Below are positions 4,966 to 25,781 of a stretch of 64,000 bases of DNA, piece by piece (position 1 is the stretch's first letter; the number at the start of each line of letters is the position of its first letter). Position numbers and translations under genes: made by a program. The stretch is from Candidatus Bathyarchaeota archaeon. GTDB lineage: Archaea > Thermoproteota > Bathyarchaeia > Bathyarchaeales > Bathycorpusculaceae. The notes beneath the pieces were generated by a model, which saw nothing but the letters and a program-made list of their open reading frames with translations, had not been told where the DNA came from and did no database searches. The DNA lies in NCBI GenBank assembly GCA_963707955.1, contig OY970176.1:1824001-1888000 (forward strand), written 5' to 3'.

Positions 4966-5206
4966 TGTTCTCAGATTATCATGGTGGCTAATTGAATAAA
5001 TAATTTGCCGAATTTCCCAAAGACGCGTCTTGTCGTTCTTCGCTGAAGCGATAGTTTCGTCAATAGCAGCCTGTAGTTCGCGCGCGCTGGCACGCGTACT
5101 TACGAATAACTGTTTATGCGAAGAATTTTTTGGTGGTGTTCTGTTATGCAACTATTTTCTTGCACTATACGGGCGCGCAAACATCATTTGGAAAAATGTA
5201 AGGTTG

Positions 5207-7830: not shown

Positions 7831-9111
7831 TTATCGAAGATTGGCTATGTCTCTGGAGAGATCAGCCCATATTTCCTCCGCTAAAGCCCAAAACATACTG
7901 ACTACATTGCGATCAATTGACCAAACCATTTCGCGTGGAATCCTGAGCACAGGAGATGACGCAAACAAGCATTCCGAATCTGTAACCATGAGGCTTATGG
8001 GTCTTTCTTCCACAACGCGTAAATTGACCTTGCCCGCCAAGTTTTGTATGAGCTCGACATTCTGCTCGTCAACGACTGTTACCCACCGTATTGAAACATG
8101 CTTTTTTCGCAGCCTCTCAAATTGTGGTGTAATCATTGAAATACTCTCGTTATCTATTCTCGAAACAATGAACAACTTCGATTGTGCACGAGCTAACGAA
8201 TCGAGCAACTGTTTCTTCACATTCTCAGTCCCCCGAACAACTACGATTGGTTGTATGGCTTTCCCACTTCTTATCGAGCTCATCTCTAATTCAGCTGGCA
8301 CTGAAACCTGCCAGACTTTTTCAAAAAGATCTTTCATGGTACCAATATGACTGGAGTCATTAGTCCACAATTCGTGCATCAACCCTTCGTCGGCAAAACT
8401 TCCATCTAGGTATATTGCTGAGCCCATGATAAGTTCCTTATTGTCAACTAGCGTCGCCAAGGATGCCACTCCAGCAGAGTGCCTTATCTCACAAAAATCG
8501 CTCAGTTTGTCGACTTCTTTCAAGTTTTTCTCATTGATTTCGGTCACTATTCTTATCTTTACGTTCCTTTGAGCACACTTTCGGAGCAATCGATCCCTGT
8601 CATATATGATGGCACGTTGGATTTCCATACTTGGAGTTATCCAGAGGACTTCGCTTTTCGCATTCTGCAACATTTCCTGGATTTTCTCATTTATCAGACG
8701 TTGGCCTGAGATAAGCGCAAAGCGTATAGGCTGAGGTTCTGTTAGCCCAGCGGACTTGCCTTCAACTTTTTTCAATTCACTTTCAAGTACCATTTTCTTT
8801 TCATGAAGTTCAGAGATCTGGCTTGAAAGAAGTTCTTGCTGATGTTTGATTAGTTCTGAAAGAACTTCTTCTGGATTGATTGCCAAGAACTTGGTGGGCC
8901 TGTCAATAATTACTTCGATCATGCCCAATTTCTCCAATCGTGGTAAAACGCGATAGATTTCTTGGCGCGGGATATTCGACAACCTTGCTATTGCCCGAGC
9001 ACTTGCTTTCTTGAGCTGAAGAAGGGCTAGATACACTTTCGCTTCGTTTCCAGAAAGACCAAAAGACATCAATTCCTTAATCAGCTTCTCTGACAGTGGC
9101 ATGAGTGTCAT
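7831..9111 (-). CDS. TrmB-family transcriptional regulator with two effector (PLD-fold-like) domains
   Basis: FGLSGNEAKVYLALL...IPRQEIYRVLPRLEKLGMIE wHTH, a coiled coil, then two repeats of AKSEV/AQSKL...VDNKE/TDSEC...FEKVW/AEEIW. Confidence 0.9.
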   Translation of the reverse strand: MTLMPLSEKLIKELMSFGLSGNEAKVYLALLQLKKASARAIARLSNIPRQEIYRVLPRLEKLGMIEVIIDRPTKFLAINPEEVLSELIKHQQELLSSQISELHEKKMVLESELKKVEGKSAGLTEPQPIRFALISGQRLINEKIQEMLQNAKSEVLWITPSMEIQRAIIYDRDRLLRKCAQRNVKIRIVTEINEKNLKEVDKLSDFCEIRHSAGVASLATLVDNKELIMGSAIYLDGSFADEGLMHELWTNDSSHIGTMKDLFEKVWQVSVPAELEMSSIRSGKAIQPIVVVRGTENVKKQLLDSLARAQSKLFIVSRIDNESISMITPQFERLRKKHVSIRWVTVVDEQNVELIQNLAGKVNLRVVEERPISLMVTDSECLFASSPVLRIPREMVWSIDRNVVSMFWALAEEIWADLSRDIANLR

Positions 9112-9456
9112 TTTGTCACCCTACTATAAGTCAGGCAAAACCCTATTAAAGCATGCGACGCCTGGAGTTCCTTACCGCGCGCGCACTCAAATCTCCGGAA
9201 CTGTTATACCGTCCTGATAGACAGCATTTCAAAAAGTACTTTGGCGCCCTTCGAAAAAAGAACGTTCATGTCTCATATTGTCGGCATGTTCATACACTCA
9301 GCTTGCGAAACTAGTTGTGAGGAGTATTGAATACACAAAAACCCAAACAACCGCGCGCCCTATGAAGCTAGTGTCGGATGAGCGTATGTCAGACGAGGCT
9401 TTATATTCGAGTATATCAGCTACGTTGCGATATAATTCGGCCGAAGATGCCATCAA

Positions 9457-9725
9457 TGAAAAAAGTTGAACTAGATAGAATAGATACCCATTCGATAAAG
9501 AAATTGCTGATAGAGATTGGGAGTCCGATCATCCCGCTCACCCTTGTTTTCAAGGCCTTAGGTTTCAAAGGAGTTACAGGGCTAAATTGGGGAATACTCG
9601 CTGGGGCTGTCTCTGCGCTAGCAATTGAATTAGGCTACAAGGTCGAAAGAGTCGGCAGGTCCATCGTTCTCGTCCAGCGGAAAGAGAATCTAACTAAGAG
9701 CAAAAGTCCGACTGAGAGCCCTTGA
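9457..9725 (+). CDS. Hypothetical protein directly upstream of the hydrogenase operon (start uncertain)
   Basis: 3' part of ORF 9378..9725; likely ATG at MKKVELD. Confidence 0.5.
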
Positions 9726-9799
9726 GATTAAGGGTAAAGACCCTGGTGGAAGTTTGAAAGAAACGTTAGAAGGAAACTTGATGGGTACCCCTTCAGTTT

Positions 9800-10150
9800 T
9801 TGACGGAGGTGCTCCTCGCGTTCGCTATTGACTTAGTGGTAGCTTTCATTTTGGTATTTGCTGCCTCGTGTCTGATATATCTGCTCGGTCGCTACTTGTC
9901 GCCGAAATCGGCCAAGACTGAAGGCGGCCAATCGACGTACGCCTGTGGCGAGAAAGCGAGTTTCCCGAAACTGAGGATTAACGTGTCATTGTCAAAGTAC
10001 TTAGTCTACTTTGTCGTTTTGGACTCATCAGTATTACTGGTAGCCTTCGCTTCCTTAGCCCTTTCCGTATCAAACGTTCTGCTCTTCATGTTTTATCTGT
10101 TAATAATGGTTGCAGCGGTTTTGCTTCTTGTTGAAGGAGGCGACCAGTGA
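9800..10150 (+). CDS. nuoA: NuoA/FpoA-like membrane subunit
   Basis: 3 TM helices; YACGE loop; YFVVLD. Confidence 0.85.
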   Translation: MTEVLLAFAIDLVVAFILVFAASCLIYLLGRYLSPKSAKTEGGQSTYACGEKASFPKLRINVSLSKYLVYFVVLDSSVLLVAFASLALSVSNVLLFMFYLLIMVAAVLLLVEGGDQ

Positions 10151-10599
10151 CGTGCTGTGCCAGTTTGGCTAAGTGGGCTCAAAAGAAGTCGCCATGGGTC
10201 CTCCACTTCAACTCTGGCGCCTGCAACGGATGCGACATCGAGGTCGTTGCCCTCCTAACGCCAAGGTATGACGTGGAACGATTTGGAATTCTTCTTGAGC
10301 CCTCGCCAAGACACGCTGACGTTCTGCTAGTCACAGGTGTGGTCACCAACCAAGTTGCAGACAGGCTAAAGCGCATCTATGAACAGATGCCCAGCCCGAA
10401 GTTCGTCGTTGCAATAGGAGCTTGCGCCTGCTCAGGCGGCGTATTCGAGGGCAACTACAACGTAGTCGGCGGAGCAGACAAGATCATTCCGGTAGACGTC
10501 TATATTCCTGGCTGTGCACCGAAACCTGAGGCAATAATTGACGGAATCGTGAAGCTACTCAAAAAGAGGAAGGAGGAAGAAACCAATAACAAACGTTGA
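10147..10599 (+). CDS. nuoB: NuoB-like / group 4 hydrogenase small subunit
   Basis: GACNGCDIE, SPRHADVLLVTG, GACACSGG, PGCAPKPE; CxxC as in hydrogenases rather than the tandem CC of complex I. Confidence 0.92.
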   Translation: MTCCASLAKWAQKKSPWVLHFNSGACNGCDIEVVALLTPRYDVERFGILLEPSPRHADVLLVTGVVTNQVADRLKRIYEQMPSPKFVVAIGACACSGGVFEGNYNVVGGADKIIPVDVYIPGCAPKPEAIIDGIVKLLKKRKEEETNNKR

Positions 10600-12175
10600 A
10601 CAAGAGCTTCTGGCAACGCTTACAGAAAAACTCGGAGAAAGAGTGCTCCAGACGCTTCCCATACAACTCGAAAAGATCTCTGTTCGAGTCAACCCAGGCG
10701 TCCACAGAGACGCTCTGAAAATCCTGCTTGACGGAGATGAAACCGCCGGCATATCAGCAATCACAGGTGTGGATCTAGGTGAAACCATCGAAATATTGTA
10801 CCACATCCGTACGCATGGAACCATCGTGACGATCAGGACACAAGTGCGAAAAGAAGATGCTAGAATCAAAAGCATAACCGACATGCTTCCAGGTGCAAAC
10901 TTTCACGAAAAGGAGGTTGCTGACCTCTTTGGCGTAATCTTTGAGGGCCATCCAAACCCGGGAAGATTGATTCTCTCAGAAGACTGGCCGAAGAACCTCT
11001 TTCCCCTCAGAAAAGATGCTCCGATCACAAACATTGAAAGCAAAACAGACAACCTTTCTCTTGAGGAAGAGGATAAACAGTCCTCAGATGAAGGAACTCT
11101 TACAACGATTATTCTTGGGCCACAGCACCCTGCGCTAATCGAGCCAGAGAAGTTCTCCTTGAAAGTCGACGGAGAGATCGTGACAGAAGTCACGCCTCGC
11201 ATCGGTTATGTTCACAGAGGAATCGAAAAAGCCGCAGAGAGCCGCACGTACCTAAAGGATGTCTATTTGGTTGAAAGAATATGCGGAATCTGCAACGCAT
11301 GCCATGCGACATGTTTCTGCCAAACGGTAGAAGCAATAATGGGAACTGAGGTACCTCTCAGGGCAAGATACTTGCGTACCATAGTTCTAGAGCTTAACAG
11401 AATTCAGAGTCACATGCTGTTGTTAGGCCACGCGGGGCTTGAGATCGGTTATGAACCTCTTTTCCAGTACATGTGGCGTGACCGAGAAGTCGCGATGGAC
11501 ATGATGGAATCACTTACCGGTAACAGGGTTATCGCATCGTTTGTTGCCGTTGGAGGGGTAAGGCGAGACCTGAAAGAGGAAAGGATTCCGGAAATCAAGG
11601 CAGGACTGGCAATGTTGAAGGAGAGAATGGGTTTCTACAAGAACCTGCTTGAAAGTGATTCCACTTTGAAAATGCGAACGAAAGACGTTGGAATATTGAA
11701 GAGAGAGGATGCGTTGAAACTTTCTGTTGTTGGCCCCGTGGCACGTGGATCGAACGTGAAAATAGACGTGAGGAAGGACGAACCCTACGCCGCATACGAT
11801 GAGATTCCTTTCAAGATGATAAGTCGCAGTGAAGGTGATTCTTGGGCAAGGCTAGTGGTTCGCCTTGATGAGGTCAACGAAAGCATCGATATACTAACCT
11901 TTGCGCTGGGCAACTTGCCAGGGGGGCCTTACAGAGTGAGAGTTCCTAGAATTGTACCTCCTGGCGAGGCGCTTAGCCGTGTCGAGGCACCAAGAGGCGA
12001 ACTGTTCTATTACGTAAAAAGCAACGGCACAGCCTACCCTGAGCGTGTCAAGATGCGTACTCCAACATTCGCGAACATATCATCTTTCGTTCAGATCGCA
12101 AGAGGCGGCAACATAGCCGATGTGCCCGCAAGTTTCGTGAGTCTTGACCCTTGTTTTTCATGCACAGATAGATAA
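10586..12175 (+). CDS. Fused NuoC-NuoD-like [NiFe]-hydrogenase large subunit (group 4)
   Basis: NuoC part EKEVADLFGVIFEGHP...PLRKD; GPQHP, GYVHRGIEK, L1 ERICGICNACH, EAPRGE, L2 DPCFSCTDR*. The frame is open back to ATA 10586 after a GGAGG; the ORF track starts it at 10643. Confidence 0.92.
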   Translation: MTNVEQELLATLTEKLGERVLQTLPIQLEKISVRVNPGVHRDALKILLDGDETAGISAITGVDLGETIEILYHIRTHGTIVTIRTQVRKEDARIKSITDMLPGANFHEKEVADLFGVIFEGHPNPGRLILSEDWPKNLFPLRKDAPITNIESKTDNLSLEEEDKQSSDEGTLTTIILGPQHPALIEPEKFSLKVDGEIVTEVTPRIGYVHRGIEKAAESRTYLKDVYLVERICGICNACHATCFCQTVEAIMGTEVPLRARYLRTIVLELNRIQSHMLLLGHAGLEIGYEPLFQYMWRDREVAMDMMESLTGNRVIASFVAVGGVRRDLKEERIPEIKAGLAMLKERMGFYKNLLESDSTLKMRTKDVGILKREDALKLSVVGPVARGSNVKIDVRKDEPYAAYDEIPFKMISRSEGDSWARLVVRLDEVNESIDILTFALGNLPGGPYRVRVPRIVPPGEALSRVEAPRGELFYYVKSNGTAYPERVKMRTPTFANISSFVQIARGGNIADVPASFVSLDPCFSCTDR

Positions 12176-12187
12176 TGAGGCGAAAGC

Positions 12188-13176
12188 ATGAGTCTAGATT
12201 TCACTTTCTTCTTCCGCGTGCTGATTTTTCCAGGCTTCTCATTTATCCTCTTTCTCACATTTCTGTGCGACTGGATTGAACGAAAAATAGAGGCAAGAAT
12301 GCAGAACAGAATCGGCCCAACTTACACTGGTCCTGCTGGCATTCTACAGCCCTTCGCCGACTTCGTGAAGTTGCTTACAAAAGAAGACATGGTTCCCCGC
12401 GACGCAAGAAGCATCGTTTTCAAGCTTTCCCCGATCCTTTCTTTCTCAACGTTTGTCCTTGCCATGTTTTTCTTGCCTATTGATGGTTCGAACGTGATTC
12501 TCAATTCGAGTTTTCAAGGTGACTTGATCTTCGTCTTAGCCCTGGTATCCATTGCCAATTTCTTCCTTTTTCTCTCAGGCTGGTCCTCACGTAACCCCTA
12601 CAGCGAAATTGGCGCAACTAGAGTTTTGACCCAGTTTCTTGGCTATGACATACCTCTTTCAATTCTTGCCTTCAGCCCTGCTGTTCTTGCAAGCGGCCTA
12701 AGTATCTCAACAATAGCAGCCAGTCAGCGTTTTCCATTTGCTCTTTTGGTTCCATGGTCTTTTGCACTGTTTATTATCACTCTTCAAGCCGAGTTGGAGA
12801 AAGACCCATTTGATGTTCCTCATGCCGAGACTGAGATAGTAGGTGGATACGAGACGGAATACAGCGGTCGGCGATTGGCTTTACTTAAGCTCTCTAAAGA
12901 TGTACAAATCGTTCTTGGCGCTGCCATCGTAGTAGAACTGTTCTTAGCCGGTCCATATGGACCAGTTTTCTTGGCCCCCCAGGACTCTGGTATACGCTAT
13001 GGTTTATTCTCAAGGTTTTCCTTATTGTCATAATCACTGAGTACCTGACGTGCGTTTTTGCGAGACTGCGCATCGATCAAGTATTGGACATCAACTGGCG
13101 AACGCTAGTGCCGCTCTCGATTCTGTCACTTATTGCCACGGTTGGAGTCGCGTTCTGGCTTAACTTGAGGATCTGA
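12188..13176 (+). CDS. nuoH: NuoH-like membrane subunit, frameshift near 12970
   Basis: ERKIEARMQNRIGP, QPFADFVKLLTKE, PFDVPHAETEIVGGYETEYSG; C-terminus WFILKV...ARLRIDQ lies in a shifted frame. Confidence 0.9.
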
Positions 13177-13182
13177 TGAAAA

Positions 13183-13566
13183 ATGGCTAAGAAAAGAAAG
13201 TTGTCGCCGATGTTGAAAGAAGTGATTGCCCAGATTTTCACAAAGCCTGCCACTCAGAAATATCCAGCAGTCAGGCCGAAAATTCCTGAAGGCTTTCGTG
13301 GCAAACAGATATTTGACATAAACCTCTGCATAAGTTGCGGCTTATGCGCTAGCGACTGCCCAGCGAAGGCCATCGAAATGGTGGATGTGGAGGGTAAGAA
13401 AAGGCCTCTGTTTCATCTTGATCGTTGTGTTTTCTGCTATCAATGTGCTGAAGGCTGCCCGAGAAACGCGATAAAAGAAACAGGATTCTTCGAACTTGCC
13501 TCAACCAGTAAGTGTGACCTGGTAATAAGACCTGAAACAGACCACAAAAATGGGGGCGAGAAGTAA
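13183..13566 (+). CDS. nuoI: NuoI-like 2x[4Fe-4S] subunit
   Basis: GFRG...CISCGLCASDCP...CVFCYQCAEGCP. Confidence 0.92.
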   Translation: MAKKRKLSPMLKEVIAQIFTKPATQKYPAVRPKIPEGFRGKQIFDINLCISCGLCASDCPAKAIEMVDVEGKKRPLFHLDRCVFCYQCAEGCPRNAIKETGFFELASTSKCDLVIRPETDHKNGGEK

Positions 13567-14032
13567 GACGATCCTAGAAATACTCGCAATCGCATTGGTC
13601 GTCTCAGCTCTTCTAGCAGTTATTCTTGACGACGCTGTATACTCGGTTGCTTCTCTAGCGATAACCCTCATGCTGGTGGCGATTCTATACTCTTTAAATG
13701 ACGCTAGCTTCGCAGCCGTTTTCCAGTTGGGCATAAGCATCGGAACATTAGCAGTCCTCTTCCTGTCAGGTGAGACTCTAAGCGAGAAAACGAAAGAGAG
13801 AAAGCCCTTAAGAAAAGCATTTCTCGCCACAATAGCAGGAATACTGCTCTCAGTTCCGTCCTTTCTGTTTTCAGTTGGCGCCCCCTCGAGCACCACTTCT
13901 TCCGATGTCTCATTTCCAGAAGCTTTGTGGAACTTGAGAGCAATAGACATTGTCTTGCAGGGCTTAGTAATACTGACCGTGGCCTTGGGCATTGCCATAG
14001 TTTTACGGACAAAGAAGGATAGAAGTAGATGA
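13550..14032 (+). CDS. nuoJ: NuoJ-like membrane subunit
   Basis: AAVFQLGISIGTLAVLFL; LWNLRAIDIVLQGL; operon position. Confidence 0.8.
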   Translation: MGARSKTILEILAIALVVSALLAVILDDAVYSVASLAITLMLVAILYSLNDASFAAVFQLGISIGTLAVLFLSGETLSEKTKERKPLRKAFLATIAGILLSVPSFLFSVGAPSSTTSSDVSFPEALWNLRAIDIVLQGLVILTVALGIAIVLRTKKDRSR

Positions 14033-14376
14033 TTGACTACGTTGTCTTATCTATGACTCTGCTGGCAATCGGCATTTACGGCCTAGTGACTAGGCGTCAT
14101 ATTCTAAAGATCCTTGTATCGATTGAGCTGATCGCAACCGCAGCATCGATGAATTTCATCTTGCTCGCCTCCTCGTTGAACAGAGCATTGGGAGAAGCTT
14201 TCCTAATACTTGCCTTCTCTACAGACACATGTGTAACAGGCGTCGTCCTAGCATTATTGATTCTAATAGCCAAGAAATACGGGACGGCCGACATAAGAAA
14301 ACTGGCCGAACTGGAGTGGCTGGAAAAAACCGAAGAAGAAAAAGGCAACAGTGAAGCAAGCGAGGATGATGCTTAG
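14029..14376 (+). CDS. nuoK: NuoK-like membrane subunit
   Basis: IGIYGLVTRRHILKILVSIELI; 3 TM helices. Confidence 0.85.
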   Translation: MIDYVVLSMTLLAIGIYGLVTRRHILKILVSIELIATAASMNFILLASSLNRALGEAFLILAFSTDTCVTGVVLALLILIAKKYGTADIRKLAELEWLEKTEEEKGNSEASEDDA

Positions 14377-16332
14377 TTGCTCCCATTCACGCCTTGGCTT
14401 GTATGGATAATTCCGATTTTTTCCAGCTTGTTAGTTCCGCTCATCAGCCGTTTTGGCGGAAAGGCGAGAAACTACTATGCAGTTATGGTAAGCTTAGTCA
14501 CGACCATTTTCGCTCTGTCTATGATCCCTGACATCTACTTTGGCACTTTGAGCAGTCCAGAATCAACTGTGGCGTGGATTCCTTCGCTGGGTGTCAGTGC
14601 AGGAGTGCGCGTGGACCCACTTAGCGTTTTCTTCGCTTGTCTAATTGCTTTCTTCAGCTTCATAGTAATCCTCTATTCCGTAGGTTACATGGCGGGAGAA
14701 GAGGGCTTGGGCAGATACTATTTTTTCATGCTCCTCTTCATAGGTTCAATGATAGGACTTGTCATGTCGGACAACTTCCTCCAGATGTTCATCTTCTGGG
14801 AAGTAGTAGGGCTCTGCTCGTATTCGCTGGTTACATTTTGGTACAAACGCCCAGAGACCGTTCGTGCAGGGGTCAAAGTCTTCCTCATAACTCGCATAGG
14901 TGACGTTTGCCTACTAGCCGCTATTGCGCTTCTTTACGCCAGCTTAGGCTCATTTTCCTTCTCCTACACGATCGCTCATATAGGAACCGTGCCAATGCCG
15001 ATTCTAACTGCCGTTGCGTTTCTGATGCTTGGCGGGGCAATCGCAAAATCAGCTCAGCTTCCTTTGCACACGTGGCTGTATGATGCTATGGAGGCTCCCA
15101 CCTCAGTCAGCGCTCTCCTGCACGGCGCAACTATGGTGAAGGCGGGAGTCTACCTCATCGCTAGACTATTTACGTTGTTTGGCCCACTGATTTCTTTGAT
15201 CCCTCTGTGGCTTTTTTCTATGGCTTGGATCGGAGCTATTACTGCATTCGTCGGTGCCACGTTGGCATTGTACACTCCTGACATAAAGGGAGTGCCTGCT
15301 TACTCAACTGTTAGTCAAATAGGATTCATGATGGCAGCGTTGGGCACTGCTTCGTCTCCTGCTTCAGAAGGTTGGTTTGCAGGTCTGTTTCACCTGATAA
15401 GCCATGCTTTCTTTCAGGGCCTTGGTTTCCTTGCCATAGGCGGAATAGTTCTCACGATTGGAACACGTGACATGCGACAGATGGGTGGACTACGAAAAGC
15501 CATGCCGATAACTTTTGCACTCTGCCTTATTGTCTTGTTCGCTCGCACCGGAGTGCCTCCGTTTGCAAGTTTTTTCAGCAAGGGCCTGATAGTAAGCAGT
15601 CTCTGGTCGACTGGCGATTTCCCACTTGTGCTCACGGTCTATGCCGCCGTCGCAGTCACTTTTGCTTACACTTTGCGATTCATTATACTCACTTTCCTGC
15701 GGCAACCATCGGAATACGTGAAGCAAAGCCATCCACATGAACCGCCAAAGATAATGCTTTTTGCTTCAGGCATACTCGCCGTTCTGTGCTTCGTTTGGGG
15801 TTTCCTCGCGAATTCAATTGCCACGTTCATGCACGTTAGCGTGCGAATCGGGTTAAGTGAAGTATTTAGTTCATCAACACTGATTTTCATGCTTGTTCTC
15901 CTCATCGGGGGTGTTCCCGTGTACATCTTCTATTACCGTAAATCTAGACTAACGGAGATAGTTTCAAACAGCTTGACTCCATTGAAAGCAGTTTTGGAGC
16001 ATGGCTATTTCTTCGATGATTTCTATGAGAAAGTTGTTGCCAGAGGAATCATGAGAGTTACTGAAGGCCTTGGATATGTTGAGAAAACAGTCTTTACTCC
16101 CTTGCCCTATTTTCTTGCAAATGGAGTAATGACCCTAGCTCGTGGCACTCATAAGTATTTTGACATTCTTGTGGACAAAATGCTATACGCTGTAGCAGAC
16201 AAAACGATGTCTTCCGCCTCAAAAATCCGAAAAACACACAATGAATCTTTACAACGTTACATAGTAGCAGCATTACTCGGTTTTCTGGTACTCCTGATAA
16301 TAGTAATAGTGACGGTGTTGAAGTTGTGGTAA
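14377..16332 (+). CDS. nuoL: NuoL-like antiporter subunit with extended lateral helix
   Basis: FWEVVGLCSYSL, KSAQLPLHTWLYDAMEAPTSVSALLHGATMVKAG; long amphipathic C-terminal helix plus final TM. Confidence 0.93.
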   Translation: MLPFTPWLVWIIPIFSSLLVPLISRFGGKARNYYAVMVSLVTTIFALSMIPDIYFGTLSSPESTVAWIPSLGVSAGVRVDPLSVFFACLIAFFSFIVILYSVGYMAGEEGLGRYYFFMLLFIGSMIGLVMSDNFLQMFIFWEVVGLCSYSLVTFWYKRPETVRAGVKVFLITRIGDVCLLAAIALLYASLGSFSFSYTIAHIGTVPMPILTAVAFLMLGGAIAKSAQLPLHTWLYDAMEAPTSVSALLHGATMVKAGVYLIARLFTLFGPLISLIPLWLFSMAWIGAITAFVGATLALYTPDIKGVPAYSTVSQIGFMMAALGTASSPASEGWFAGLFHLISHAFFQGLGFLAIGGIVLTIGTRDMRQMGGLRKAMPITFALCLIVLFARTGVPPFASFFSKGLIVSSLWSTGDFPLVLTVYAAVAVTFAYTLRFIILTFLRQPSEYVKQSHPHEPPKIMLFASGILAVLCFVWGFLANSIATFMHVSVRIGLSEVFSSSTLIFMLVLLIGGVPVYIFYYRKSRLTEIVSNSLTPLKAVLEHGYFFDDFYEKVVARGIMRVTEGLGYVEKTVFTPLPYFLANGVMTLARGTHKYFDILVDKMLYAVADKTMSSASKIRKTHNESLQRYIVAALLGFLVLLIIVIVTVLKLW

Positions 16333-16333
16333 C

Positions 16334-17833
16334 ATGATTCAAGATACACTCTTGTTGACACTGCTCCTCCCTGCATTCGCGGTCCCAGTTGTTTACTTAA
16401 CAGGAAAGAGATCTCCAAAGGCAGCAGCGATTCTTCTTGCTTTGATAGCCCTAACTGACATCGCGTTGCTCTTGTCAACTGTGCCTACTATTCTTGATCC
16501 CACAACTGGGCACAAGTACGTTGAATCTTACTCCTGGATTCCAGTTCTCAATTCCTCTTTAACCCTTTTTGTTGACGGCGTAAGCTTATCGATGGCAATC
16601 GTAACTCTGGTGCTTATTCTAACAGCGTCCCTGTTCTCAATCGATTATATGCAAGAAAAGAAAGGCCTTGCTGAGTATTATGGGCTTTTGACGTTGCTAT
16701 TCGTAGGTCTCGTCGGTGTTTTCATAACATCGAATCTCATGCTCTTCTACTTCTGCTGGGAATTGATGCTTATCCCGACATTCTTCATAATCGGTGGGTG
16801 GGGCTACAAAGAGCCGTACAAAGCAGCATTCAAGTTTTTCATATTCACCCACGCAGGTGCCGTCTTCGTCCTCCTCGGCATAGGTGGCATCTTCATGGCC
16901 ACGGGCAGTCTGGACATGTTTCAGGCACAAGCAGCTTTGATGACAGGGCATTCGGATATTGTTAGGTGGATTTTGCTGTCTCTTACCGCTGGCTTCGCCG
17001 TGAAAATGGCCGTCGTGCCAGTTCACATGTGGCTACCAGACGCGTACTCTGAGGCACCAGCACCGATGTCTGCCCTTCTCAGCGGAGCAATCACCGGGGC
17101 CGGAACCTACGCGATGCTCAGAGTGGCGCTAGGAACAGTGTTCCCAGCAATTATGTCTACTACTTTCGGCACCGAATTTCTGCATGGTTTGGCATTGTTC
17201 GGAGTCACATCTGCCCTATTCGGTGCCTTGATTTCCACGCTAGAAAACGACATAAAGAGGATAATATCATATTCGAGCATATCACACATGGGATACGTCC
17301 TTTTCGGATTTTCCCTATTTTCTTCCCCAATAGCAATAGCGGGAGCAGTTCTGCATCTTGTGAATCATGCCATAAGCAAAGGATTGTTTTTCCTGTCTTC
17401 CGGGGCGGTGACAAAGCAGGTTGAAACTCGAGACATACGGGAAATGGGAGGACTCGCAGGACAGATGCCAATAACAGCGACATGTTCAACCACAGCAGCA
17501 TTAAGTATCGCAGGAATACCACCGTTCGCATGCTTCATAAGCGAACTCCTAATATTCGTTGGGGCCTTCCAGACAATCATCAGCGACGGTTTCTACCTTT
17601 TGCCGACGGCCTTGATGTTGATAGCCACTGTCTTATCACTTGCTTACGTCTTGAGATACCTAAGTCATGTCTTCTTTGGTCCTGTCAAATCCGAAAAAGT
17701 GAAAGAAGCCCCGTTTTTCATGAATTTCGCGATGATTATCCTGGTTGTACTTGTCATAATCTTAGGCGTATGGCCGTCATTCTTCCTTAATCTCATCAAC
17801 ACGTTTAAAGTTGCTTTAATTGGGGGAATCTAA
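16334..17833 (+). CDS. nuoM: NuoM-like antiporter subunit, copy 1
   Basis: CWELMLIP, AVKMAVVPVHMWLPDAYSEAP, DIKRIISYSSISHMG, FISE. Confidence 0.92.
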   Translation: MIQDTLLLTLLLPAFAVPVVYLTGKRSPKAAAILLALIALTDIALLLSTVPTILDPTTGHKYVESYSWIPVLNSSLTLFVDGVSLSMAIVTLVLILTASLFSIDYMQEKKGLAEYYGLLTLLFVGLVGVFITSNLMLFYFCWELMLIPTFFIIGGWGYKEPYKAAFKFFIFTHAGAVFVLLGIGGIFMATGSLDMFQAQAALMTGHSDIVRWILLSLTAGFAVKMAVVPVHMWLPDAYSEAPAPMSALLSGAITGAGTYAMLRVALGTVFPAIMSTTFGTEFLHGLALFGVTSALFGALISTLENDIKRIISYSSISHMGYVLFGFSLFSSPIAIAGAVLHLVNHAISKGLFFLSSGAVTKQVETRDIREMGGLAGQMPITATCSTTAALSIAGIPPFACFISELLIFVGAFQTIISDGFYLLPTALMLIATVLSLAYVLRYLSHVFFGPVKSEKVKEAPFFMNFAMIILVVLVIILGVWPSFFLNLINTFKVALIGGI

Positions 17834-18068
17834 TGATATACATATCAGGCAGAGACCTACCAGTAATATGCAGTGCCCTGTTCTTTTTCCCCAGAAATCC
17901 AGTTGTTAACTGGCTCGTCAAGAGGAAAGACAAAACAACGCTGTCAAAAGCAATCGAGTGTTATGAAGAATCTCTCCTTAATCATTCTTCACCGCGCACT
18001 TGCCATGTAAGGCCTTTACCGTCCGCCAGAGCATTTCGGAAGCTGCACGCGAAGTGAGGTGATAGCAG

Positions 18069-19568
18069 ATGCAAGGCACGCTGTTGTTAACGTTGATGTT
18101 GCCTACGCTAGCTGTCCCATTCGTTTACTTGACTGGCAGAAAAAGTCCAAAAGCAGCTGCAGTTCTGATCGCCCTAATTGCTTTAGCCGACATCCTATTA
18201 CTCTCTACAATTATCCCGACAATTCTTGGAGGTGCACAGCACAAATACGTCGAGTCCTATCAATGGATTCCAGTTCTCAATTCCTCTTTAACCCTTTTTG
18301 TTGACGGGGTTAGTTTATCGTTGGCAATCGTAACGTTGGTACTTATTCTGACCGCTGCGCTCTTCTCAGTCAACTACATGCAGGAAAGAAAGGGGCTCGC
18401 CGAGTACTATGCTCTTTTGACGTTGCTATTCATAGGTCTCCTCGGTGTTTTCATCACGTCAAACCTCCTGCTCTTCTACTTCTGCTGGGAATTGATGCTT
18501 ATCCCAGCATACTTCATAATCGGTGGGTGGGGCTACAAAGAGCCGTACAAAGCAGCATTTAAGTTTTTCATATTCACCCACGCAGGTGCCGTCTTCGTCC
18601 TCCTCGGCATAGGTGGCATCTTCATGGCCACGGGCAGTCTGGACATGTTTCAGGCACAAGCAGCTTTGATGACGACACATTCGGATATTGTTAGGTGGAT
18701 TTTGCTGTCTCTTACCGCTGGCTTCGCCGTGAAAATGGCCGTCGTGCCAGTTCACATGTGGCTTCCGGACGCTCATTCTGAGGCACCAGCACCGATGTCT
18801 GCCCTTCTAAGCGGCGTGATAATCGGAGCAGGGGTTTATGCTATTTTTCGTGTGTCCCTAGGGACTGTGTTCCCTGCGGTCATGGGAACCGATTTTGGTG
18901 CTGAGTTCATGCACGGTTTGGCAGTGTTCGGAGTCCTATCCGCTTTTTTCGGTTCCTTCATTGCGTTGGTGGAAAATGACATCAAACGGATTATAGCTTA
19001 TTCGAGCATATCACACATGGGGTATGTTCTTTTTGGGCTTTCTATGATGTTTTCAGGTAACCCTCCGCAACTGATCCAGGTTGTGATGGCGGGAACAATT
19101 TTACATCTCATAAATCACGCAGTAAGCAAGGGTCTGTTCTTCTTGTCGGGCGGGTCAATCATGAAGCAGCTCGACATTCGAGACATTCGTGAAATGGGCG
19201 GGCTCGCTGGGGAGATGCCTACAACAGCAACCTGTTCGACCATAGCCGCATTAAGCATCGCTGGTGCGCCTCCTTTTGCATGTTTCATCAGTGAATTTCT
19301 ACTATTCGTCGGCGCGTTTCAAGTGATCAGCAGAGATGGTTTCTACCTTTTGCCAACTGCTTTCATGTTAGTGGCTACGGTCTTGTCGCTTGCTTATGCT
19401 TTGAGATACGTTAGCCACGTGTTCTTGGGACCGACAAAGTATAAGGATGCCAAGGAATCGCCGTTTTTCATGAAGTTCGCGATGCTGATCTTGGCTGCGC
19501 TTGTCATAGTTCTCGGCGTATGGCCCACTTTTTTCCTTGACCTTATTAACACGCTGAGGTTTGTTTAG
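18069..19568 (+). CDS. nuoM: NuoM-like antiporter subunit, copy 2
   Basis: Close paralog of copy 1; WLPDAHSEAP, DIKRIIAYSSISHMG. Confidence 0.92.
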   Translation: MQGTLLLTLMLPTLAVPFVYLTGRKSPKAAAVLIALIALADILLLSTIIPTILGGAQHKYVESYQWIPVLNSSLTLFVDGVSLSLAIVTLVLILTAALFSVNYMQERKGLAEYYALLTLLFIGLLGVFITSNLLLFYFCWELMLIPAYFIIGGWGYKEPYKAAFKFFIFTHAGAVFVLLGIGGIFMATGSLDMFQAQAALMTTHSDIVRWILLSLTAGFAVKMAVVPVHMWLPDAHSEAPAPMSALLSGVIIGAGVYAIFRVSLGTVFPAVMGTDFGAEFMHGLAVFGVLSAFFGSFIALVENDIKRIIAYSSISHMGYVLFGLSMMFSGNPPQLIQVVMAGTILHLINHAVSKGLFFLSGGSIMKQLDIRDIREMGGLAGEMPTTATCSTIAALSIAGAPPFACFISEFLLFVGAFQVISRDGFYLLPTAFMLVATVLSLAYALRYVSHVFLGPTKYKDAKESPFFMKFAMLILAALVIVLGVWPTFFLDLINTLRFV

Positions 19569-19580
19569 GAAGGAAAGCAT

Positions 19581-21080
19581 ATGGTTAACATCTTGGACGT
19601 TTCTTCTCCCATAATCAGTTTCGTCTTGTTTTCGCTTCTGACAATCCCTGTGGTTAAGGCCATCCGCAAAAGGCCTAGCAAGAGAACTGCTCTCTCTCTT
19701 TGCTGGTTTGCTATCGTTTTCGTCACTGCAACTGCAACTGTTGCCAACCTCGCGATAAAATATTACGACCAATCTTCATCCAACCCGTTCCTAACCTTAG
19801 CGCTGACAACCGGAACCAATACTGTGTTCTCAAGCGCTTTTCTGATAGACGCAATGTCGATTTACATGGCTATCATTTTCACAATTGTGGGTGCAGTTGT
19901 TTTTCTGTACGGCATGTTCTATGTTGATCTTGACGAGAAACTCTCAGAGAGATACTATGCTATCATGCTTATCGTAATTGGTTGCACAATAGGCGCTGCC
20001 TTCTCAGGGGATCTTCTGACCCTCTTCATTTTTTGGGAAGCCTCCGCCGCGGGTTCGAGCTTCTTGATGCTCTATCAGAGAACCCGCAAATCCTTGCATG
20101 CTACTCTGAGGTATTTAGTTATGATAATAATAGCTTCAGCATTCATAGTTTATGGACTTTCAATAGTGTACGGCATAACAGGCACTCTTAACTTCTGGGC
20201 AGTAAGACAAGCATTGATAGCCTTACCAGACAAACGATTGCTCGTAATCGCCTTCGTTTTTATTGCGACAGGCTACGCTATTGAAGCTGCCGTTGTGCCT
20301 TTTCACATGTGGCTTCCGGACGCTTACACGGCAGCACCAGCATCGTCTTCAGCCTTTCTTTCTGCTCTTGTAGACCAAGGAAGCTACTATGTTCTTTTGA
20401 GAGTTCTCGTTTACATTCTGACGCCAATGACTGTCTTGAACTGGACTGTTATGCTTGCTGTCTTCTCTGCATTGACGATGGTAGTAGGCAATATACTCGC
20501 TTTGACACAAAGAGACTTGAAACGCTTGATTGCGTACGTTTGCGTTGCAGATGTAGGTTACAATCTTGTGGCTATAACCAGCGTAACATCGCTCGGAATA
20601 ATGGGAAACCTCTTCTTCTTCTTGGTGGGAGGAATAACAACAGCTCTTGCCTTCATGAGTATTGGGCTCTTAAACCGCATGGGGTTCAAGACTCTGGATG
20701 ATCTCTCAGGAGCGGGCAGAAAAGCGCCGTTTACGAGCTTGGCTCTAGTCCTGAGCGTCTTTTCCTTTGCAGGCGTCCCGCCTCTTGCGGGCTTCATCGC
20801 AAAGTACTTGGTCTTCACCGCTGCGATAGAAGCAAACCTAGGCTGGCTAGCAGTAATCGGCGTCCTTGCCAGCGTCGTTCAGACCGCGTACTTGCTGAGA
20901 TTGGTTAATCGCATGTATGCAAGAACACCCCAAGAAAATGCAATCAGGATTAAGGAGCCGAGAAGGCTACTTGTGCCCATTTTCATTCTTGTTGCAGCAA
21001 TAATCATATTAGGCATCTATCCTACGATTGTTTTAAACCTCATCCAACCCGTAAGTCAGCAATTTCCGCGTATACCATAG
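19581..21080 (+). CDS. nuoN: NuoN-like antiporter subunit
   Basis: PFHMWLPDAYTAAP, VGNILALTQRDLKRLIAY, AGVPPLAGFIAKY. Confidence 0.9.
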   Translation: MVNILDVSSPIISFVLFSLLTIPVVKAIRKRPSKRTALSLCWFAIVFVTATATVANLAIKYYDQSSSNPFLTLALTTGTNTVFSSAFLIDAMSIYMAIIFTIVGAVVFLYGMFYVDLDEKLSERYYAIMLIVIGCTIGAAFSGDLLTLFIFWEASAAGSSFLMLYQRTRKSLHATLRYLVMIIIASAFIVYGLSIVYGITGTLNFWAVRQALIALPDKRLLVIAFVFIATGYAIEAAVVPFHMWLPDAYTAAPASSSAFLSALVDQGSYYVLLRVLVYILTPMTVLNWTVMLAVFSALTMVVGNILALTQRDLKRLIAYVCVADVGYNLVAITSVTSLGIMGNLFFFLVGGITTALAFMSIGLLNRMGFKTLDDLSGAGRKAPFTSLALVLSVFSFAGVPPLAGFIAKYLVFTAAIEANLGWLAVIGVLASVVQTAYLLRLVNRMYARTPQENAIRIKEPRRLLVPIFILVAAIIILGIYPTIVLNLIQPVSQQFPRIP

Positions 21081-21147
21081 CTTCTGTCGAAATTTCAGGT
21101 ATACATTTAAACATAATTTCCACCCTCTATAGATAGAGGGTCGAACC

Positions 21148-22680
21148 ATTCCTGAGAAGAAGAATAAACTAATCGCGTTTAATGATTTGGAACGATTGAT
21201 AATAGGGCCTGGGTTCTGCACTTTGTGTGGTGCGTGCGAAGCTGCCTGCCCAGTTCATGCAATAAAGGTGGAACATGACAGACCTTACAGGCTTCATGAT
21301 TGTTCTGACGATCTGGACTCTTGCCCGATCTGCTATGACACTTGCCCACACACTGATGCACTTCTGTTTGAAACGTTGAGGTTTGTTGCAGACGCTCCTC
21401 ATAGAAGAGAAAGCTTGGGCTATTACAGAAGGATTTTGCTCGCCCACGCCACTAATCCTACCTTGAGGGATGCTAGCAGAAGCGGAGGCGTCGTAACTGC
21501 ACTTCTTAATTTTGCCATCACCGAAAAAATAATCGACAGTGCCGTGGTCTCAGAAGCCTCGTCTAGAGTGCCTATTAAGATTAACCCTTCAATAAGCCTC
21601 GTACCAGATGATACGCTTTCCGCCGTGGACGCCAAGATCGTGCCTTCTGCAGTGGCAGAGGCTTTTGGTCGGGCAGTTTTTGAGCACGGCAAGCTGAACA
21701 TCGCTTTTGTTGGTATTCCATGCCATATTGTTGCACTTCGAAAACTTGAAGCTTGGCATCACAAGATGATGGGAAGCCTTCGAATAACTATAGGGCTCTT
21801 CTGCCTTTGGACTTTCTCCTTGGGTAAACTCCTCGAATACCTTCTGGACAAATACAGCATTGCGGCTAACGAGATTCAAAACGTTGATTTGACGGCGAAT
21901 GAGTACGTTGTAACCACGGAAAACGGTGTTGTTCGAATCCCACTTTCGGAAGCTAAATCTTACGTTATGAATCGCTGTAGGACTTGCACCTACTTCACTT
22001 CGCAACTTGCTGACCTGAGCGTTGGCGGAGCAGGCCCATTGAAAGACTGGTCTATAGTCATCATCAGAACCAAACAGGGCGAAGACTTCTTCAACAGTGC
22101 TGTCAGAGAGGGCGTAATAACAACTAAGAAGACAGAAACTGAACCAGACGCCTTGGCTCACCTGCTTCAGTTGGCCTCGTACAAGAGACAGTCTGCTTTT
22201 AAGGAAATCGAGGCTATGAAAAAAGTAGGTGTTGCCGTCCCTACCGGCGTGGAGCTTTTCTACAAAACTGCATCCACCGAAATCAGTACGCTGCAGGAAG
22301 TGAAAGTGAGAGAGATTATGACAAGAAAAGTGATCACTCTACCGCCAGCAATGACAGTTGATGAGCTCCTCGACAAAATAGCTAAACATCACCACACTGG
22401 CTTCCCAGTAATAGATGAATTAAACAGAATTGTGGGGATCGTTACCTTGCAGGATGCAATGAAGGTCGCCAAAGAGAATCGAAACAGTGTTTCTGTCCAG
22501 GAGATTGCTACAAAAGATCTGCTTGTAGTTTTTCCCGATGACACCGCTGCTAGGGCCCTCGAGAAAATGAGCCAGCACGATGTTGGAAGACTCCTCGTTG
22601 TGGATGGAAAGCACAAGCTTTCGCTGTTGGGAATTTTAACAAGAAGCGATGTGATGCATGCGCTAAGAAAGAATGTTTAA
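21148..22680 (+). CDS. Ferredoxin-FrhB/FpoF-family (F420-binding beta-subunit-like) protein fused to a C-terminal CBS pair
   Basis: CTLCGACEAACP...CPICYDTCP; SGGVVTALL; VGIPCHI; IGLFC; CRTC...ADLSVGG...WSIVIIRT; then IMTRKVITL...HTGFPVID...VGRLLVVD...GILTRSD. ORF track start is 21187. Confidence 0.9.
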   Translation: MPEKKNKLIAFNDLERLIIGPGFCTLCGACEAACPVHAIKVEHDRPYRLHDCSDDLDSCPICYDTCPHTDALLFETLRFVADAPHRRESLGYYRRILLAHATNPTLRDASRSGGVVTALLNFAITEKIIDSAVVSEASSRVPIKINPSISLVPDDTLSAVDAKIVPSAVAEAFGRAVFEHGKLNIAFVGIPCHIVALRKLEAWHHKMMGSLRITIGLFCLWTFSLGKLLEYLLDKYSIAANEIQNVDLTANEYVVTTENGVVRIPLSEAKSYVMNRCRTCTYFTSQLADLSVGGAGPLKDWSIVIIRTKQGEDFFNSAVREGVITTKKTETEPDALAHLLQLASYKRQSAFKEIEAMKKVGVAVPTGVELFYKTASTEISTLQEVKVREIMTRKVITLPPAMTVDELLDKIAKHHHTGFPVIDELNRIVGIVTLQDAMKVAKENRNSVSVQEIATKDLLVVFPDDTAARALEKMSQHDVGRLLVVDGKHKLSLLGILTRSDVMHALRKNV

Positions 22681-22737
22681 CGTGTATACTGATGTGTGCG
22701 CTAGGAAGACTTAATTGCTTCTTGCGGCGGATCTGTT

Positions 22738-23163
22738 TTGAAGATTATGCACTTCGTTAAAGAGATGATGAGGCCTGTCGTTAAGATAGGTTCGCAGCAA
22801 ACGGTTCTAGAAGCTGCGAAGCTTATGAGAGATTGTGGTCGGAGCAGCTTGGTCGTTATGGAGGGAAATATCGCTGTTGGTATAGTGACCGAGAAAGACT
22901 TTATTACGAGAGTCGCAGCGGAAAACCTCCCTTGCACTACGCTAGTTTCGCAGGTTATGTCCTCGCCTCTCAAAACGGTTGATGCTAACACACCTCTGAA
23001 GGAAGCTGCTAGAATCATGTTCGAAAATAAGATAAGACGGCTCCCAGTCGTGGAGGGTGGAGCATTAGCAGGAATTATAGTTGCGTCAGATTTTCTGTCC
23101 CAACTGTCCAAGAAAACCCTGACTGAGGAAATCTGGGGGGCGCTAACTAGCTCTAGCCTCTAA
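22738..23163 (+). CDS. CBS-pair protein
   Basis: GIVTEKDFITRV...VMSSPL...KIRRLPVV; paralog of 4541..4965. Confidence 0.9.
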   Translation: MKIMHFVKEMMRPVVKIGSQQTVLEAAKLMRDCGRSSLVVMEGNIAVGIVTEKDFITRVAAENLPCTTLVSQVMSSPLKTVDANTPLKEAARIMFENKIRRLPVVEGGALAGIIVASDFLSQLSKKTLTEEIWGALTSSSL

Positions 23164-23194
23164 AATCGATAAGGGAAAGAACCAACGAGGCCAG

Positions 23195-23395
23195 AGAACT
23201 GGCTTGGATTTCCATAAAACAGTCCGTTCGCGCCAGCAGTGTTCACGGCGGTTGTTGCAAACAGTCCTGTGGCTATAGAACCTCATATTCCGCCGACACC
23301 GTGGCACGCGAAAACATCCAAAGTGCTATCAAGACGTGTCCGCGCACGACACCTTGAAACCAAATTGGATACGGCATCCGCAATCAAACATATGA
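23195..23395 (-). pseudogene. Ammonium transporter (Amt) C-terminal fragment
   Basis: [46 protein letters not shown] with an in-frame stop at a conserved Trp. Confidence 0.8.
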
Positions 23396-23462
23396 CGATG
23401 GCTGAAGCGTGCGTTCCTAGAAGCTAATGCACGCTTAAATATGGCTTCTAGCGTGAAAGATA

Positions 23463-23666
23463 ATGGGGATTCGTGGAATGTATAGACTTGCCAAGCTGAC
23501 TGCCACTCAACTTAATGATATCAGGAAGCTTGAAGCTAAGTGGAAGGGCGTTGTGGTCTTGGCGTACGAGAAGGCACCAGAACCGGCGAACCTCTCCGAG
23601 GAACAACTGAGAAGACTTCAAAAATTGGAGAAAGAACTGGGCGTAGTTCTGATAGCATACAAATAG
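23463..23666 (+). CDS. Small protein made of two ~30-aa repeats
   Basis: AKLTATQLNDIRKLEAKWKGVVVLAYE / ANLSEEQLRRLQKLEKELGVVLIAYK. Confidence 0.75.
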   Translation: MGIRGMYRLAKLTATQLNDIRKLEAKWKGVVVLAYEKAPEPANLSEEQLRRLQKLEKELGVVLIAYK

Positions 23667-24866: not shown

Positions 24867-25244
24867 ATGGAAAAAAGAAGTGAACGAGATATGGACAAGA
24901 TTCTGATCAAAGACCTGCGTTTAAGATGTATCATAGGAATTGACGAGTTTGAGCGTAGGGAAAAGCAGGATGTGGCAATCAACGTTGTTATCTGGTCGAA
25001 TTTGACCGAGGCAGCTAAGACAGACGACATACGCAAGAGTGTTGACTACAAAGAAATAACCAAGCGCATCATAAGGCTAGTGGAAGGGTCAGAGTTTCGC
25101 CTTGTTGAGACGTTAGCAGAAAAAGTGGCAGAGAGTTGTCTTGAACACGCACGAGTCCAAAAAGTTAGGGTGACCGTTGAGAAGCCTGGGGCGCTCCGAT
25201 TTGCCAGAAGCGTAGGAGTAAGCATACTTCGAAAAAGGGACTAG
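24867..25244 (+). CDS. folB: Dihydroneopterin aldolase (FolB/FolX family)
   Basis: DKILIKDL...IIGI..FERREKQ...SVDY...LVETLAE...VEKPGA. Confidence 0.9.
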   Translation: MEKRSERDMDKILIKDLRLRCIIGIDEFERREKQDVAINVVIWSNLTEAAKTDDIRKSVDYKEITKRIIRLVEGSEFRLVETLAEKVAESCLEHARVQKVRVTVEKPGALRFARSVGVSILRKRD

Positions 25245-25253
25245 TCTTCGGCC

Positions 25254-25781
25254 ATGACCGTGGCTTTCCTTTCCTTAGGTTCTAACATCGAGCCAGAAAA
25301 AAACATGCTTGAAGCAGTGAGGCTGCTGTCTCATCATGTCAAGGTGCTGAAGGCGTCAACAGTTTATCTCACTGAACCGTTGCAGCGGAAATCGCAGCCG
25401 GCATATTACAACTGCGTCATTAAAATCGAAACGGACATCGAGCCTTGCAAGTTGAAATTTGACGTGTTGAGAGTCATCGAAAACGAATTGGGAAGGAAAA
25501 GAACCGAAGACAAGTTCGAATCCCGAACAATCGACATAGACATAATACTCTATGGAAATCTAGTCTTTTCAACAAAAGAGCTGACTCTTCCAGACCCAGA
25601 TATACAGAGAAGAGCGTTCTTGGCCATACCTCTATCAGAAATTGAACCCGACTTGGCGTTGCCAATTGGAAATAAGCCTATGAGAGAAATAGCAGACCGA
25701 TTTAAGAAACAATCCAAGATCAAGGAGCTGAAGAGTTTCACTGAAACATTGCAAGGTCTAGTTAGAAGTTTACGCATGTAG
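25254..25781 (+). CDS. folK: 6-hydroxymethyl-7,8-dihydropterin pyrophosphokinase
   Basis: LSLGSNI, YLTEP, IENELGR, RTIDIDIILYG, LPDP. Confidence 0.92.
   Translation: MTVAFLSLGSNIEPEKNMLEAVRLLSHHVKVLKASTVYLTEPLQRKSQPAYYNCVIKIETDIEPCKLKFDVLRVIENELGRKRTEDKFESRTIDIDIILYGNLVFSTKELTLPDPDIQRRAFLAIPLSEIEPDLALPIGNKPMREIADRFKKQSKIKELKSFTETLQGLVRSLRM

Follow-up and report, generated by a model that had tools for sequence, protein, structure and literature searches.

The 64,000-nucleotide stretch of DNA analysed here (the window) comprises positions 1,824,001-1,888,000 of contig OY970176.1 (assembly GCA_963707955.1) from a Candidatus Bathyarchaeota archaeon of the Bathycorpusculaceae, whose genome consists of one contig of 2.35 Mb and is 97% complete. 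Between window positions 9800 and 21080 lies a complex-I-like operon for which an initial annotation had proposed the gene order A-B-CD-H-I-J-K-L-M-M'-N, with four antiporter-like genes in place of three. Assignment of the open reading frames (ORFs) by Pfam and NCBIfam profile matches confirms both points: the genes follow this order, tightly packed and all on the + strand, and L, M1, M2 and N match NuoL, NuoM, NuoM and NuoN best, respectively, and are the only PF00361 genes in the genome. On these profile matches and the motifs described below, the cluster encodes a [NiFe]-hydrogenase of the Hfo type, Fpo-like and probably of group 4g, and its distinguishing feature is the second M. The initial annotation made no mention of a frameshift in nuoH, of an FrhB/FpoF-like gene directly after N or of a spacer between M1 and M2. 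The features of the operon and its immediate surroundings are as follows.

9400-9407, + strand: TATA-box-like motif and candidate operon promoter, the sole TTTATATW match within 9000-23500.
9378-9725, + strand: small ORF upstream of A, its start probably later; no Pfam or NCBIfam match.
9800-10150, + strand: hfoA, NuoA-like (PF00507, E 2e-5).
10147-10599, + strand: hfoB, hydrogenase small subunit/NuoB-like, with a CxxC motif (PF01058, E 1.8e-35; GACNGCD).
10643-12175, + strand: hfoCD, NuoC-like domain fused to a [NiFe] large subunit (PF00329, PF00346, PF00374).
12188-13179, + strand: hfoH, NuoH-like, frameshifted (PF00146; open frame ends at 13033).
13183-13566, + strand: hfoI, NuoI-like, 2x[4Fe-4S] (Fer4 families and a NuoI-type NCBIfam model).
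13550-14032, + strand: hfoJ (PF00499).
14029-14376, + strand: hfoK (PF00420).
14377-16332, + strand: hfoL, antiporter-like, 651 aa, with an extended lateral helix (NuoL NF005141, 453 bits).
16334-17833, + strand: hfoM1, antiporter-like (TIGR01972, 331 bits).
16740-17034, + strand: gene-conversion tract in M1; its partner tract in M2 is 18469-18763.
17833-18057, + strand: spacer ORF of 74 codons, a nuoN 5' relic (colinear match to the start of N).
18069-19568, + strand: hfoM2, the second antiporter-like M (TIGR01972, 325 bits).
19581-21080, + strand: hfoN, antiporter-like (TIGR01770, 262 bits, best match).
21187-22680, + strand: FrhB/FpoF-like protein with a CBS pair, 497 aa, candidate electron-input module (Pfam).
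22738-23163, + strand: stand-alone CBS-pair protein (PF00571).

Relatives were gathered with the CD protein at one genome per species, and the best 80 of 164 were kept as loci (L numbers); nearly all of these are from Bathyarchaeia, with a few Asgard records (L034, L042, L049). Among the 80 kept loci the synteny A-B-CD-H-I-J-K-L-M-N is general, and it is shared by a Bathycorpusculum locus (L060) whose CD protein has 59% identity to that of the window, which lends indirect support to a place in group 4g. The closest relative is L010, in which CD, H, L and N show 87-97% protein identity to the window. PF00361 copy number was surveyed in 61 related genomes (G numbers). Alignments A1-A3 and the count of conserved residues exclude L058, which has a very long branch, and the L length statistics exclude L009, which is cut by a contig end.

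The CD subunit retains all four Ni-Fe cysteines, as had been claimed for it, within the motifs RICGICNACH (L1) and DPCFSCTDR (L2), the latter forming the C-terminus and being followed directly by the stop codon. Each of the 74 near-full-length CD homologs carries both NiFe motifs, with L2 as the C-terminal end in 73. The B subunit likewise carries the hydrogenase-type CxxC ascribed to it (GACNGCD) rather than a tandem CC, and GxCxGC is found in 67 of 76 B homologs. Compared with solved chains, CD scores best against HycE (7z0s_E, 285 bits) and MbhL (6cfw_L, 262 bits), in both cases through the C-terminal motif, followed by Nqo4 (238 bits); with the NCBIfam model for NuoD the score is barely above the cut-off (360.4 bits versus 360), and the FpoD model gives 317 bits versus a cut-off of 600. 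By sequence CD is intermediate between hydrogenases and NuoD. The genome encodes HypD elsewhere (475 bits), together with two further NiFe large-subunit loci. An FpoD of the Fpo/Fqo type would be devoid of NiFe ligands and reduce methanophenazine or quinone, and here the NiFe motifs are present. Because the NiFe cysteines are retained and NuoF is missing, D is not of the quinone-linked NuoD type, and the enzyme would be expected to work in the manner of a '2M' complex (complex I with a second M) without being complex I proper. The initial annotation was right in its account of the anatomy and in setting the system between the Fpo-like hydrogenases of group 4 on one side and 2M complex I on the other.

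M1 and M2 have 78% protein identity, and each is 25-26% identical to N. At the DNA level the two copies are 72.4% identical outside a central tract and 97.3% identical over the 298 aligned nucleotides inside it, including 102 nt that match exactly. Nei-Gojobori estimates place synonymous divergence (dS) at 1.6-2.0, i.e. saturated, in the N- and C-terminal parts and at 0.156 across alignment columns 126-250, which form the central third, whilst the ratio of nonsynonymous to synonymous divergence (dN/dS) is 0.09-0.18 throughout. The low central dS and near-identity indicate that the centre (approximately M1 residues 136-234) has recently been homogenised by gene conversion, and a dN/dS of about 0.1 that both copies are under purifying selection. 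In agreement with this, of 167 columns at least 95% conserved in the M family, M1 keeps 160 and M2 keeps 164. Several charged residues have assigned functional roles in NuoM; naming helices and residues by alignment to E. coli NuoM, both copies keep the Glu of transmembrane helix (TM) 5, Lys of TM7, His of TM10, His and Lys of TM11 and Glu of TM12. Across 59 M family members five of these are invariant, and the TM10 His is present in 58.

The 235 bp spacer between M1 and M2 provides a record of how the second copy arose. Residues 1-36 of its ORF are colinear with N residues 1-36 from Met1, with 13 of 36 identical (E 0.004 as a single comparison); this match to the start of N exists at the protein level only, and blastn finds no DNA similarity to the spacer elsewhere in the window. 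Had M been duplicated in tandem along with the beginning of N, a relic of this kind would be expected here. The sequence shows that the extra M goes back to an ancient event of this type, in which M was copied together with the first ~75 codons of N. The duplication appears genuine, and both copies look functional and long maintained.

Further evidence of the age of the two-M state comes from the relationship to L010, which has a single M. In a tree of 62 M proteins, M1, M2 and the L010 M form one clade (Shimodaira-Hasegawa approximate likelihood ratio test support, SH-aLRT, 99). Trees of separate parts are discordant: the N-terminal third groups M1 with the L010 M (99/97), the C-terminal half groups M2 with the L010 M (98/96), and the centre groups M1 with M2 (99/91). 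Synonymous distances to the L010 M agree, at 0.72 for the N-terminal part of M1 and 0.66 for the C-terminal part of M2, with 1.4-2.2 for the other two combinations; these orthologous values of 0.66-0.72 lie well below the 1.6-2.0 that separates the flanks of M1 and M2. These discordant trees and distances identify the L010 M as a hybrid with an M1 head and an M2 tail, as unequal crossing-over within a tandem pair would generate. The hybrid in turn implies that the two-M state is older than the species split and that one lineage has collapsed to one M; it is possible that the single M of L010 is instead an assembly collapse. Fast evolution of the M1 C-terminus and the M2 N-terminus after a recent duplication was also considered, and was rejected because the proportion of synonymous differences (pS) is raised as well (0.64-0.71 versus 0.44-0.46).

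The survey of nuoM copy number that the initial annotation had called for identifies a second group of two-M operons. L, M and N are all carried by 55 of the 80 loci, of which 46 have one intact M, five have two and four have M in fragments. The five, together with L057 (two M, no N), constitute the other two-M clade (L039, L044, L048, L055, L057, L069). In this L039-type clade the first and second copies (Ma and Mb) form separate clades (99 and 97), with 62-68% Ma-Mb identity. From its position in the M tree the L039-type clade is independent and older, and two-M Hfo operons have arisen at least twice. Two further loci, L026 and L028, have operons that end after L and one Ma-type M (at L026:15627-17237 and L028:15663-17183), each locus containing neither N nor a second M. 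Four adjacent PF00361 genes occur in two of the 61 related genomes searched, namely that of the window and G032.

The L subunit carries a lateral helix, whose length we estimated as the number of residues after an invariant Asp (D547 in window L, in a YFxDxxY motif); these values are approximate, as phmmer alignments stop inside the helix. The tail of window L measures 104 residues compared with ~71, ~76 and ~73 in the solved chains of E. coli, M. smegmatis and T. elongatus, respectively, and is thus 28-33 residues longer. Across 55 L proteins, minus the truncated L009, tail lengths fall into three classes.

L tail of 74-83 residues: 17 proteins, all from one-M loci.
L tail of 102-104 residues: 20 proteins, 3 from two-M loci (including the window) and 17 from one-M loci.
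L tail of 126-129 residues: 17 proteins, 4 from two-M loci, 2 from loci with M only and without N, and 11 from one-M loci.

Insertions of ~26 residues occur in the helix at no fewer than three alignment positions (e.g. L001:13730-15760, L022:13717-15744, L039:13715-15748), and one insertion type visibly repeats, in tandem, the stretch of helix beside it. The length of the lateral helix thus changes in steps of ~26 residues, with window L one step above three-pump enzymes. L026 and L028 have tails of 127 residues, in the longest class, despite a single M and no N. An AlphaFold2 model of window L, used for helix boundaries only, has a mean predicted local distance difference test (pLDDT) score of 74, falling to ~50 in the helix, and places helices at 545-573 and 575-610 and TM16 at 623-650. 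Helix length was considered as a diagnostic of pump number and rejected, since one-M loci share the long classes; the extended helix would permit a fourth pump without proving one.

With regard to electron input, the initial annotation had noted the lack of NuoEFG. This is correct for the operon, and no Complex1_51K (NuoF) is found anywhere in the 97% complete genome. The corollary that the enzyme has no input module is incomplete, because the only FrhB/FpoF-family gene of the genome (its sole PF04432 gene) lies directly 3' of N. The product of this gene (21187-22680) contains a two-cluster ferredoxin domain, FrhB_N, FrhB_C and, at the C-terminus, a CBS pair. Among solved chains it is closest to those of the FrhB family, and it falls below the FpoF and FrhB cut-offs (84-181 bits versus 269-475). 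An FrhB-like homolog is present in 21 of the 80 loci, in 10 directly after N and in nine within 2.5 kb upstream of A, a conserved linkage to the operon, and F420 ligase homologs occur in the window's genome. We speculate that, if the FrhB-like protein docks, the partner of the enzyme could be F420 rather than ferredoxin, and that the CBS pair could gate the reaction by adenine nucleotides.

Other features of the region can be described briefly. TTTATATW, the motif behind which stands the archaeal TATA consensus, matches the whole window 8 times versus 3.0 expected. The small ORF at 9378-9725 has a homolog, among the 80 kept loci, only in L010 (82%), and Rfam gives no match in 9000-23500. A TrmB-family regulator is encoded at 7831-9111 (- strand), upstream of the operon, and CBS-domain proteins at 4711-5151 and 22738-23163. 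P-type cation ATPase genes stand on both sides of the region (1786-4224 and 27815-30214, both - strand), and a pterin biosynthesis cluster (FolB, HPPK, GTP cyclohydrolase I) is found at 24867-26336, a few kb downstream.

The best explanation of these data, in which we place roughly even confidence, is that the locus encodes a Bathyarchaeial Hfo-type [NiFe]-hydrogenase with a membrane arm that contains L, M1, M2 and N instead of three antiporter-like subunits. M1 and M2 would then reside in one complex as part of a four-pump assembly. In such an enzyme the clusters of I and B would conduct electrons between the NiFe site and a soluble carrier of low potential, the carrier being either ferredoxin docking on I, or F420 via the adjacent FrhB-like protein. 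The redox chemistry would be coupled to ion translocation via H, A, J and K and the four antiporter modules, which would be held by an L lateral helix one unit of ~26-28 residues longer than in three-pump complex I. With the fourth module more ions would be moved per H2, and the H+/e- ratio would be raised accordingly.

A complex prediction for M1 plus M2 (998 residues, each with its own alignment, run without controls) returned a score of 0.00, which weighs neither for nor against this account. Five points weigh against it. First, the canonical TM8 Lys of NuoM is Gly or Ser in the whole M family, so that pumping by these M subunits may differ from that in complex I. Second, nuoH is frameshifted in the assembly and the complex, if the frameshift is real, is broken. 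Third, the long helix is present in one-M loci also (17 in the same class, 11 longer), and helix length therefore does not track M number. Fourth, L010 has reverted to one M, which indicates that the second M is dispensable. Fifth, the energetics are demanding: the H2 potential is about -414 mV under 1 bar of H2 and becomes less negative as H2 declines, and that of ferredoxin is about -450 to -500 mV, giving a span of ~100-200 mV that would not suffice to move some five ions per two electrons against a normal membrane potential. On these potentials the enzyme would perform best in reverse, or pump only at very low H2. The reverse option has the membrane potential drive H2-dependent reduction of the low-potential carrier, with the fourth module giving more leverage at low H2 or low potential; alternatively proton pumping might occur only where partner organisms keep H2 very low, or the modules might not each move one ion.

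It is also conceivable, if unlikely, that M1 and M2 are alternative isoforms for a single M position, in an arm that keeps three pumps and is tuned to conditions. A lone hybrid M suffices in L010, most of the complete loci (46 of 55) have one-M operons, and the helix length class of the window is common to one-M loci. The L039-type spacers (e.g. L039:17292-17574) moreover contain a T-run, a conserved BRE/TATA-like box and a GGTG before the second M, which suggests, by the archaeal consensus, that Mb-N is its own transcription unit in that clade; modules regulated apart in this way would suit an exchange of isoforms. In the window, however, a TTTATATW search finds no TATA-like box between M1 and M2, and M2 has a ribosome-binding site (GAGGTGA), consistent with one transcript from which both copies would be made together. 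Divergence between the copies is also concentrated in their outer thirds around a centre kept alike by conversion, a pattern that would fit different neighbours better than different chemistry, and none of the seven two-M loci falls in the short helix class.

We consider it improbable that the extra M adds no net charge translocation and serves instead as a cation/proton exchange module, comparable to the Mrp-like part of Mbh, that converts an H+ gradient into a Na+ gradient. The antiporter-like subunits are indeed homologous to MrpA/MrpD by NCBIfam, and such a role would ease the thermodynamic difficulty, evident from the potentials given above, of moving about five H+ for each H2. Nonetheless, M1 and M2 are identical at all conserved charged positions and almost identical over the central third, and a Pfam/NCBIfam scan of the operon finds no MrpE/F/G or MbhA-C-like genes.

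Just as improbable, in our judgement, is a decaying locus, with a true frameshift in nuoH, a complex that has ceased to be produced and hence no present function for the second M. Compared with L010, nuoH has one base fewer in a homopolymer stretch within 12959-12983, and the ORF stops at 13033. Hfo is patchy within the genus, with a significant PF00361 match in only two of 10 other same-genus genomes, five of the 10 being under 90% complete. Past the shift, however, the +1 frame (12976-13176) remains open and conserved as the nuoH C-terminus for 67 codons, up to a double stop just before nuoI; all other genes of the operon are intact, and dN/dS is ~0.1. Position in a homopolymer stretch is as expected for a sequencing error, and the frameshift is probably an assembly indel, though it may be a genuine recent event. 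A [NiFe] large-subunit gene elsewhere in the same genome (G000:C1:2216218-2217439) also appears split, its two open frames coding for 295 and 240 aa, a further hint that this assembly contains indel errors. The CD gene of L010 (L010:9908-11528) is similarly found in two overlapping frames, probably through an indel error of that assembly.

That the two M genes are an assembly artefact, e.g. two strain alleles in tandem, is extremely improbable, since despite the 102-nt exact repeat between the copies the genome was assembled as one contig, identity between the copies drops to 72% beyond the 298-nt tract, the degenerate nuoN relic between them (36% identical to N) is not allele-like, and the same architecture recurs in six loci of other assemblies and in G032.

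The four-module hydrogenase thus remains our preferred explanation. A wider proposal, which we advance as speculation and think rather unlikely, is that the Hfo arm is an evolvable, perhaps regulated gearbox, in which modules are gained and lost by unequal recombination between tandem M genes, the helix changes in ~26-residue steps inserted independently at three or more positions and, in one clade, a promoter for Mb-N could let cells switch the number of ions per H2 with conditions. Operons with two, three or four antiporter-like genes are all observed.

Of living enzymes, Hfo is regarded as the one that most closely links respiratory complex I to the energy-converting hydrogenases, and Bathyarchaeia are among the most abundant sediment archaea. 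If the fourth pump assembles, variation in the number of pumps dates back to the hydrogenase stage and precedes quinone chemistry. The window species and L010 would then be a natural two-M/one-M pair with which to determine the ions moved per antiporter-like module. The quantised length classes of the lateral helix provide a sequence-level readout of membrane arm pitch. The energetic puzzle of five ions per H2 bears on how Bathyarchaeia produce or consume H2 near the thermodynamic limit.

Amongst solved structures, the closest relatives of CD belong to E. coli formate hydrogenlyase (FHL, 7z0s) and P. furiosus Mbh (6cfw), the membrane arms of which are different and shorter; that of Mbh contains one antiporter-like subunit and an Mrp-like module. 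Complex-I-like group 4 [NiFe]-hydrogenases of Asgard archaea are described as having a NuoBCDI-type arm with an active-looking NiFe site, no NuoEFG and ferredoxin as the proposed donor (Appler et al., 10.1101/2024.07.04.601786); as presented there, these have fewer antiporter-like subunits than complex I, whereas the window has more.

The nearest described system is Hfo itself, defined as an Fpo-like, 11-subunit group 4g (HydDB) [NiFe]-hydrogenase of Bathyarchaeia, with a proposed role in reducing ferredoxin with H2 at the expense of the membrane potential (Loh, Herve and Brune 2021, PMC7886697). The window shares with it the A-B-C-D-H-I-J-K-L-M-N order, the NiFe motifs of D and the lack of NuoEFG (PMC7886697); in the window C and D are fused. 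It differs in carrying two M genes, where the supplement of that paper gives one hfoM per metagenome-assembled genome, and in having an FrhB/FpoF-like gene beside N, where FpoF/O is reported absent (Loh et al. 2021, PMC7886697). The L tail differs too, at 104 residues in the window versus 74-83 in Bathy-6-type Hfo.

The second M has its counterpart in 2M complex I, known from Nitrospira, Chloroflexi and others and proposed to serve a higher ion/electron ratio and reverse electron transport (Chadwick et al. 2018, as cited in PMC9040806 and PMC7117926), and reported to have a lateral helix of L lengthened by an insert of 26 residues (Yu et al. 2022, PMC9040806). In both systems the second M lies between L and N and the L helix is longer by a similar length. 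The 2M complexes are, however, quinone reductases without NiFe ligands, whereas the window D is a hydrogenase subunit in a genome without a detected NuoF, and in the window family one-M operons may have the extended helix as well. For the latter there is a precedent, in that helix insertions in complexes without an extra M have been read as an evolutionary transition (Yu et al. 2022, PMC9040806). The same paper describes the five-pump Complex_I_3 of Ca. Manganitrophaceae, with extra pump modules and 26-residue helix insertions; the parallel with Hfo lies in the helix length classes, Complex_I_3 itself being bacterial and quinone-linked, with MrpD-like replacements of L (PMC9040806).

The initial annotation knew of no described 2M hydrogenase. 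We likewise found none described as such in the literature searched, from which most subscription journals fell outside, so that absence from print is not established; an extra fpoM has, however, been noted in one sentence, as an inserted copy in the Fpo-like operon of hot-spring 'Family-5' Bathyarchaeia (Qi et al. 2021, PMC8407382). That operon may belong to the same clade as the window or to the L039-type clade. In the passage concerned it is called an Fpo-like complex rather than a hydrogenase, and the passage holds no analysis of origin, selection, helix or stoichiometry (PMC8407382). Viewed against these systems, Hfo and 2M complex I are known, and what would appear to be new is a recurrent and selected two-M form of the hydrogenase that carries a record of its own evolution.

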